A stretch of DNA of 853 nt from a phage, in sequence record KM111297.1; one strand, given 5' to 3'. The position numbers and the translations under genes are program-made. The notes below the pieces were generated by a model, which did not search any database, was not told where the DNA came from, and saw nothing but the letters and a program-made list of their open reading frames with translations. Positions 1 to 853 of this stretch are shown piece by piece (the first letter of the stretch is position 1; each line of letters opens with the position of its first letter).

Positions 1-853
1 ATGGGTATGGTGCGGCGTGCTATTCCTCATCTGATTGCTTTTGATATTTGTGGTGTTCAGCCTCTGAATAACCCTACCGGCCAGGTATTTGCACTGCGTG
101 CAGTATACGGTAAAGACCCTATCGCTGCTGGCGCTAAAGAAGCTTTCCACCCGATGTATGCTCCGAATGCTATGTTCTCTGGTCAGGGTGCTGCTGAATC
201 TTTCGAAGCACTGGCTGCAAGCAAAGTTCTGGAAGTTGGTAAAATTTATTCTCACTTCTTCGAAGCTACCGGTGCTGCACACTTCCAGGCTGTTGAAGCT
301 GTAACCGTTGATGCTACTGCTACTGATGCCGCTAAACTGGATGCTGCTGTTACCGCTTTGATTGAAGCAGGTAAGTTGGCTGAATTGGCTGAAGGTATGG
401 CTACTTCTATCGCTGAACTTCAGGAAGGCTTTAACGGTTCTACCGATAACCCGTGGAACGAAATGGGCTTCCGCATCGACAAACAAGTTATCGAAGCTAA
501 ATCCCGTCAGCTGAAAGCAAGCTACTCTATCGAACTGGCACAGGACCTTCGTGCAGTACACGGTATGGATGCAGATGCTGAACTGTCTGGTATCCTTGCT
601 ACCGAAATTATGCTCGAAATCAACCGTGAAGTTATCGATTGGATTAACTACTCTGCGCAGGTTGGTAAATCTGGTATGACCAACACCGTTGGCGCTAAAG
701 CTGGTGTGTTTGACTTCCAGGACCCGATTGATATCCGTGGTGCTCGTTGGGCCGGTGAGAGCTTTAAAGCCCTTCTGTTCCAGATTGATAAAGAAGCAGC
801 CGAAATCGCTCGTCAGACCGGTCGTGGTGAAGGTAACTTCAAATCGGATCCCG
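1..853 (+). CDS. 23: Major capsid protein gp23 of a T4-type (T-even-like) myovirus; internal fragment, partial at both the 5' and 3' ends
   Basis: Frame 1 is open across all 284 codons (nt 1-852) with no stop; the supplied ORF track omits it, presumably because it has no in-window stop. The translation contains long runs that match T4 gp23 as I recall it, e.g. MGMVRRAIP-LIAFDICGVQP, PTGQVFALRAVYGKDP, AAGAKEAFHPMY, AMFSGQGAA, EGMATSIAELQEGFNGSTDNPWNEMGFRIDKQVIEAKSRQLKA-YSIELAQDLRAVHGMDADAELSGILATEIMLEINREV-DWINYSAQVGKSGMT, AGVFDFQDPIDIRGARWAGESFKALLFQIDKEA-EIARQTGRGEGNF. Codon choice is strongly biased (gct, ggt, ctg, gaa, aaa, cgt, ttc, acc, ccg), typical of a highly expressed gene in an enterobacterial host. 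The ATG at nt 1 is an internal Met codon (T4 ...AVMGMVRR...), not the start. The last 3-4 codons (nt 841-853) may not be native. Confidence 0.93.
   Translation, partial: MGMVRRAIPHLIAFDICGVQPLNNPTGQVFALRAVYGKDPIAAGAKEAFHPMYAPNAMFSGQGAAESFEALAASKVLEVGKIYSHFFEATGAAHFQAVEAVTVDATATDAAKLDAAVTALIEAGKLAELAEGMATSIAELQEGFNGSTDNPWNEMGFRIDKQVIEAKSRQLKASYSIELAQDLRAVHGMDADAELSGILATEIMLEINREVIDWINYSAQVGKSGMTNTVGAKAGVFDFQDPIDIRGARWAGESFKALLFQIDKEAAEIARQTGRGEGNFKSDP
841..853 (+). other. Possible non-native 3' junction: BamHI site GGATCC (nt 846-851) within the terminal sequence tcggatcccg
   Basis: After the conserved ...GRGEGNF, T4 gp23 continues IIASRNVV as I recall it, but this window reads K-S-D-P (aaa tcg gat ccc g). 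The terminal 10 nt tcggatcccg are the reverse complement of CGGGATCCGA, a very common clamp-plus-BamHI primer tail. GATC is also a Sau3AI/MboI site. Natural divergence cannot be excluded. Confidence 0.4.

Follow-up and report, generated by a model that had tools for sequence, protein, structure and literature searches.

The stretch of phage DNA analysed here (the window, 853 nucleotides) is in all probability a PCR amplicon of the major capsid gene g23 which carries the junction to a TA-cloning vector at its 3' end. Four things were directly observed: there are primer footprints at both ends, the inosines are read as G, the tail is identical to a documented polylinker, and the natural sequences searched do not contain the junction. 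The likely course of events is as follows. The g23 gene of a Dhakavirus-type T4-like coliphage would have been amplified with the degenerate primer pair Mzia1/CAP8 and a Taq-type polymerase. The amplicon would have been ligated into a T-vector whose polylinker, of the pUC57/pTZ57R type, had been opened with EcoRV, and the deposit would represent a single clone. Trimming was presumably imperfect: the 5' end lost four primer bases, whereas the 3' end kept 12 bases of junction and vector. A preliminary description, made from the letters of the window, had considered that the 3' end might be something other than phage DNA and the whole an engineered or cloned PCR product. The primer footprints and the polylinker tail bear this out as far as the non-phage end is concerned. 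The proposed mechanism, the role given to the opening ATG and the extent of the non-native sequence had to be revised.

An internal fragment of a Dhakavirus g23

A single open frame runs from base 1 to the end across all 853 bases of the window. The window matched g23, the major capsid gene of T4-like phages, and the best matches were Dhakavirus genomes; in these relatives the match falls within the CDS annotated as 'major head protein'. Over the whole window megablast identities were 97.7% with WG01, 97.4% with vB_EcoM_005 and 96.3% with JS98. Taxonomy was checked for these three top matches; all are Dhakavirus. When only positions 24-817 were compared, identity was 98.5% with WG01 and 97.0% with JS98, colinear and ungapped, and the ungapped identity with 10 relatives ranged from 93 to 98.5%, as is proper for a Dhakavirus g23. 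The colinearity with the Dhakavirus genes (WG01, JS98, vB_EcoM_005, Bp7, IME08) over 24-817 covers an internal part of the gene only; the fragment corresponds to locus positions 1201-2041 of a 1560-nt g23 CDS annotated at 922-2481. A megablast search of PLSDB returned no plasmid match to the window. By its identity to WG01 and its placement in the CDS the segment 24-817 (plus strand) is authentic phage sequence from inside the gene for the major capsid protein of a T4-like coliphage of the Dhakavirus type. Independent phage sequence is confined to this segment.

Altogether five window bases were found in no close relative, two of which (12 and 15) are located at inosine positions of the forward primer. 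Within 24-817 the bases at 316 (A106T), 369 and 657 were private, i.e. absent from 10/10 close Dhakavirus relatives. These may be true strain variation or polymerase (Taq) errors which were fixed in a single clone. The core also contains native sites of two widely used environmental g23 primers, MZIA1bis at 43-67 (one mismatch) and MZIA6 at 604-628 (three mismatches). Because both sites are internal, the standard amplicon of environmental g23 work lies wholly within the fragment.

Primer footprints at both ends

In the 5' alignment with WG01, JS98 and vB_EcoM_005, the window had G instead of T at exactly positions 12 and 15; in the 3' alignment GAA of the window stood opposite GCT of the same three genomes. 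Taken together, this raised the suspicion of degenerate primers. The sequences of two g23 primers used in diagnostic PCR for T4-type phages, Mzia1 (TGTTATIGGTATGGTICGICGTGCTAT) and CAP8 (TGAAGTTACCTTCACCACGACCGG, published without a tail), are quoted in PMC4229321. Mzia1 mapped exactly onto positions 1-23 (plus strand) with its bases 5-27; the first four primer bases, TGTT, are missing. Its inosines are at window positions 3, 12 and 15 and all three read G, as is to be expected from the established pairing of inosine, which polymerases treat like G. Positions 12 and 15 are T in 10/10 close native relatives. At the other end, positions 818-841 (minus strand) agree with the reverse complement of CAP8 in 24/24 bases. 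This primer is T4-derived and its 24-mer is present without a mismatch in T4 g23. The GAA at 829-831 supplants the native Dhakavirus GCT, with CT at 830-831 in 9/10 close relatives. Thus, bases 12, 15 and 830-831, the latter appearing as an Ala-to-Glu exchange, are dictated by the primers. The preliminary description had missed the footprints at 1-23 and 818-841 and with them the non-native bases 12, 15 and 830-831. It had emphasized that the protein tracks T4 closely up to GNF. The 'GEG' in this place is the sequence of the T4 primer CAP8 and so is no evidence about this phage.

The distances agree as well. In T4, the span from Mzia1 to CAP8 is 845 nt, which equals 841 nt of the window plus the four missing primer bases. 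In all, the window resembles a Mzia1/CAP8 amplicon in that the footprints are at the expected ends, the length is that of T4 and the inosines are read as G. It differs from a plain amplicon of this kind by the absence of the first four Mzia1 bases and by 12 additional 3' bases which do not belong to the amplicon.

That the window starts on an in-frame ATG is correct, and it had been taken as a sign of an engineered construct. This does not hold. The initial ATG is made up of Mzia1 bases 5-7 (A, T and an inosine read as G), and native relatives carry ATG at the same place (...GTAATGGGTATGG; GTA ATG GGT ATG GTT). There it is an internal Met codon, 279 nt into the g23 CDS (CDS from 922, match from 1201). 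An engineered start codon was dismissed for two reasons: relatives have this ATG by nature, and the Mzia1 footprint covers it.

A separate observation was made with phage Ec2-ASingh (PQ561418.1, a record labelled UNVERIFIED). The interior of its g23 is Dhakavirus-like (95.6%); in the region matching 818-853 of the window it has a T4-like GAA at the CAP8 site and TTATC after it. This suggests natural mosaicism in this region, and a native Dhakavirus-like g23 could accordingly have GAA.

The twelve-base tail and its match to a polylinker

The window ends with ...GGTAACTTCAAATCGGATCCCG, which in frame 1 is translated as ...GRGEGNFKSDP. Past ...GGTAACTTCA there was no match to native g23; the window closes with AATCGGATCCCG (KSDP). 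At this point WG01, JS98 and vB_EcoM_005 have GGTAACTTCATCATCGCTTCCCGTAAC (GNFIIASRN). The window is identical to these three up to the TTCA near the 3' end, after which the native genes continue with TCATCGCTTCCCGTAAC. We inspected 85 native loci (80 from IMG/VR, four phage-genome matches and T4) and located GN[F/Y/W] in 73. In 73/73 the motif was followed by [I/L/V][I/L][A/C]SRN, and KSDP occurred in none. Bases 842-853 of the window lack this conserved segment. The claim that likeness to g23 ends near GNF and that KSDP then takes the place of IIASRN was thus confirmed by the close relatives and by the 73 native loci; in the alignment with native g23 of close relatives, which had been proposed as a check, the junction was absent. 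The departure had been placed at 841. It is real, but starts one base later because the A at 841 still fits both native sequence and CAP8. This leaves exactly 12 foreign nucleotides, 842-853, and the advice to trim some 10-13 nt was sound.

The sequence GGATCC (BamHI) occurs once in the window, at 846-851. By chance, about 0.10 sites are expected, and at least one site was present in 20/200 shuffled sequences. For this reason the BamHI site by itself is unremarkable; its position is remarkable. A megablast alignment reaches 853 solely through a one-base gap, which is possible since the vector sequence ATCGGATCCCG (843-853) happens to resemble the native ATCGCTTCCCG. With an offset of one base, 9/11 bases are alike. 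Due to this likeness BLAST aligns the window end-to-end with a single gap, and vector contamination stays hidden in routine similarity searches.

The junction was then sought in natural sequences. The 20-mer GGTAACTTCAAATCGGATCC had no exact match in IMG/VR and none in JGI metagenome contigs. With window positions 800-853 as a query in a sensitive BLAST against 50,697 phage records, 1113 records matched; in none did the whole length align free of mismatches and a gap, and 92.7% was the highest identity of a full-length match. The preliminary description had specified beforehand what would speak against it, a native genome with the junction contiguous with g23. No such genome was encountered in IMG/VR, the JGI metagenomes or the phage records.

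After the last CAP8 base the tail reads A-ATC-GGATCC-CG (all on the plus strand). EcoRV cuts its site as GAT^ATC, and a Taq product in an EcoRV T-vector yields A, then ATC, then polylinker. The tail can be parsed accordingly. The A at 842 would be the non-templated 3' A of Taq paired with the T overhang of the T-vector, and the ATC at 843-845 would be the EcoRV half-site. The remainder, GGATCCCG at 846-853, would comprise the BamHI site and CG as the start of SmaI; CCCG at 850-853 equals the first four bases of the overlapping SmaI/XmaI site. Blunt cloning predicts TTCA joined directly to ATC. The window has TTCA-A-ATC, i.e. the extra A that marks TA cloning, and from this A we infer a T-vector rather than a blunt EcoRV vector.

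For the pUC57/pTZ57R polylinker we assumed TCTAGAT/ATCGGATCCCGGGCCCGTCGAC, and a full-text search with this string led to a pUC57 construct printed as ...GGTACCTCGCGAATGCATCTAGAT-[insert]-ATCGGATCCCGGGCCCGTCGACTGCAGAGGCCTGCATGCAAGCTT... (bioRxiv 10.1101/2024.02.13.580208). The EcoRV-opened polylinker in the same source is ...[insert]ATCGGATCCCGGGCCCGTCGAC.... Positions 843-853 of the window matched the right arm of EcoRV-opened pUC57, ATCGGATCCCGGGCCC..., in 11/11 bases, and the window stops before GGCCC. For a random 12-mer, the probability of agreeing with a particular junction is 6e-8; about 2e-6 is obtained when some 40 choices of vector and orientation are allowed. Insert, A and ATCGGATCCCG hence agree with the documented right side of the insertion point of an EcoRV-derived T-vector of the pUC57 type. 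Compared with a complete junction of this kind, the window shows 11 polylinker bases from the right side only, as it begins inside the forward primer. With 12 nt on one side the vector is not confirmable from both sides. For the left arm of a 57-type T-vector we would assume ...TCTAGAT plus T in front of the insert. Beyond 853 a 57-type polylinker should presumably continue with GGCCCGTCGAC... (GGCCCGTCGACTGCAG), and for a clone in reverse orientation we would expect the tail AATCTAGATGC. pTZ57R/T (InsTAclone) and pUC57-T are commercial T-vectors which we take to carry this polylinker. The actual product may have been one of these; only pUC57 itself is documented. The assumed 57-type polylinker was absent from GTDB genomes (25-mer) and from PLSDB (81-mer), neither of which is a vector database. 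In the literature searched, no relevant connection of g23 or the junction string with pTZ57R or pT7Blue was found. That the deposit breaks off after CCCG, one base beyond a complete codon, might speculatively be put down to a long Sanger read whose usable part ended there.

Other origins of the tail and use of the record

The BamHI site had originally been ascribed to a reverse primer tailed with CGGGATCC. In its full form this would be a CAP8 with a 5' BamHI tail (5'-CGGGATCCGATT-TGAAGTTACCTTCACCACGACCGG-3') with a view to directional cloning or to expression. Primers commonly carry CGGGATCC as a clamp with a BamHI site, the last 8 nt of the window are its reverse complement, and the tail begins exactly where CAP8 ends. 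Yet in a tailed primer, site and clamp abut the template-specific part. Here, the site is separated from the CAP8 part by AAAT (GATT as read in the primer), for which a tailed primer gives no account. GATT fits neither the template nor a need of design; it would be a purposeless 4-nt spacer which is exactly the EcoRV half-site plus the T overhang. In addition, the published primer has no tail, the frame of the KSDP fusion has no evident design, and the 11/11 polylinker match, which extends beyond BamHI (ATC before, CG after), would be mere coincidence. We therefore regard a BamHI-tailed CAP8 as unlikely. Somewhat less probable still is another T-vector with EcoRV and BamHI sites, e.g. pT7Blue, in which one C was lost to homopolymer compression in a long read. 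We assume the pT7Blue junction to be AATCGGATCCCCGGG, which would match 11/12 tail bases. At the tail a Sanger read would have covered about 850 nt of insert, a distance at which homopolymers are probably often miscounted. The 57-type polylinker, however, matches 12/12 without any sequencing error. In a pUC19-derived linker such as that of pT7Blue the sequence beyond 853 is presumably GGTACCGAGCTC (CGGGTACCGAGCTC), which differs from the continuation assumed above for a 57-type vector.

Could the tail be genuine phage DNA, i.e. a natural variant, a recombination or mobile-element junction inside g23, or the end of a genomic Sau3AI/BamHI fragment? In T4 the homing endonuclease gene segD adjoins g23, and in vB_EcoM_005 a homing-endonuclease-like ORF does. 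Such neighbours make the flanks of g23 prone to recombination, and the BLAST alignment can be extended to 853 with one gap. On the other side, the junction was found in 0 of IMG/VR, the JGI metagenomes and the 50,697 phage records, the segment after GNF is conserved in 73/73 native loci and the divergence starts exactly at the last base of a primer. A natural tail is effectively refuted and has next to no probability. The same minimal credence goes to the special case of a homing endonuclease or other insertion or recombination junction in an unsequenced Dhakavirus whose likeness to a polylinker is coincidental. A Sau3AI/BamHI-cloned genomic fragment, which the preliminary description had offered as a second possibility, is impossible, as GATC is absent from this site in native relatives.

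Remnants of vector and primers in the deposited sequence of a cloned amplicon are a familiar artefact; they matter for data hygiene only, and nothing here is biologically new. When left in, these bases generate a false C-terminal 'KSDP', a false Ala-to-Glu exchange (codon 277) and two false synonymous changes (12 and 15), and any alignment, phylogeny or set of training data based on the record would inherit them. An analysis should drop 842-853, mask 1-23 and 818-841 and use 24-817 alone.

A minor observation concerns vB_EcoM_005 (MK295203.1), one of the closest relatives. At locus positions of about 2219-3067 the colinearity of its g23 with WG01 is lost, starting near 2219. The gene has a stop at codon 462, giving a CDS of 1389 nt compared with 1560 nt, and the homing-endonuclease-like ORF is located just downstream. 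In length the genome falls about 15 kb short of its relatives. The short g23 reflects either a deletion or an assembly problem.
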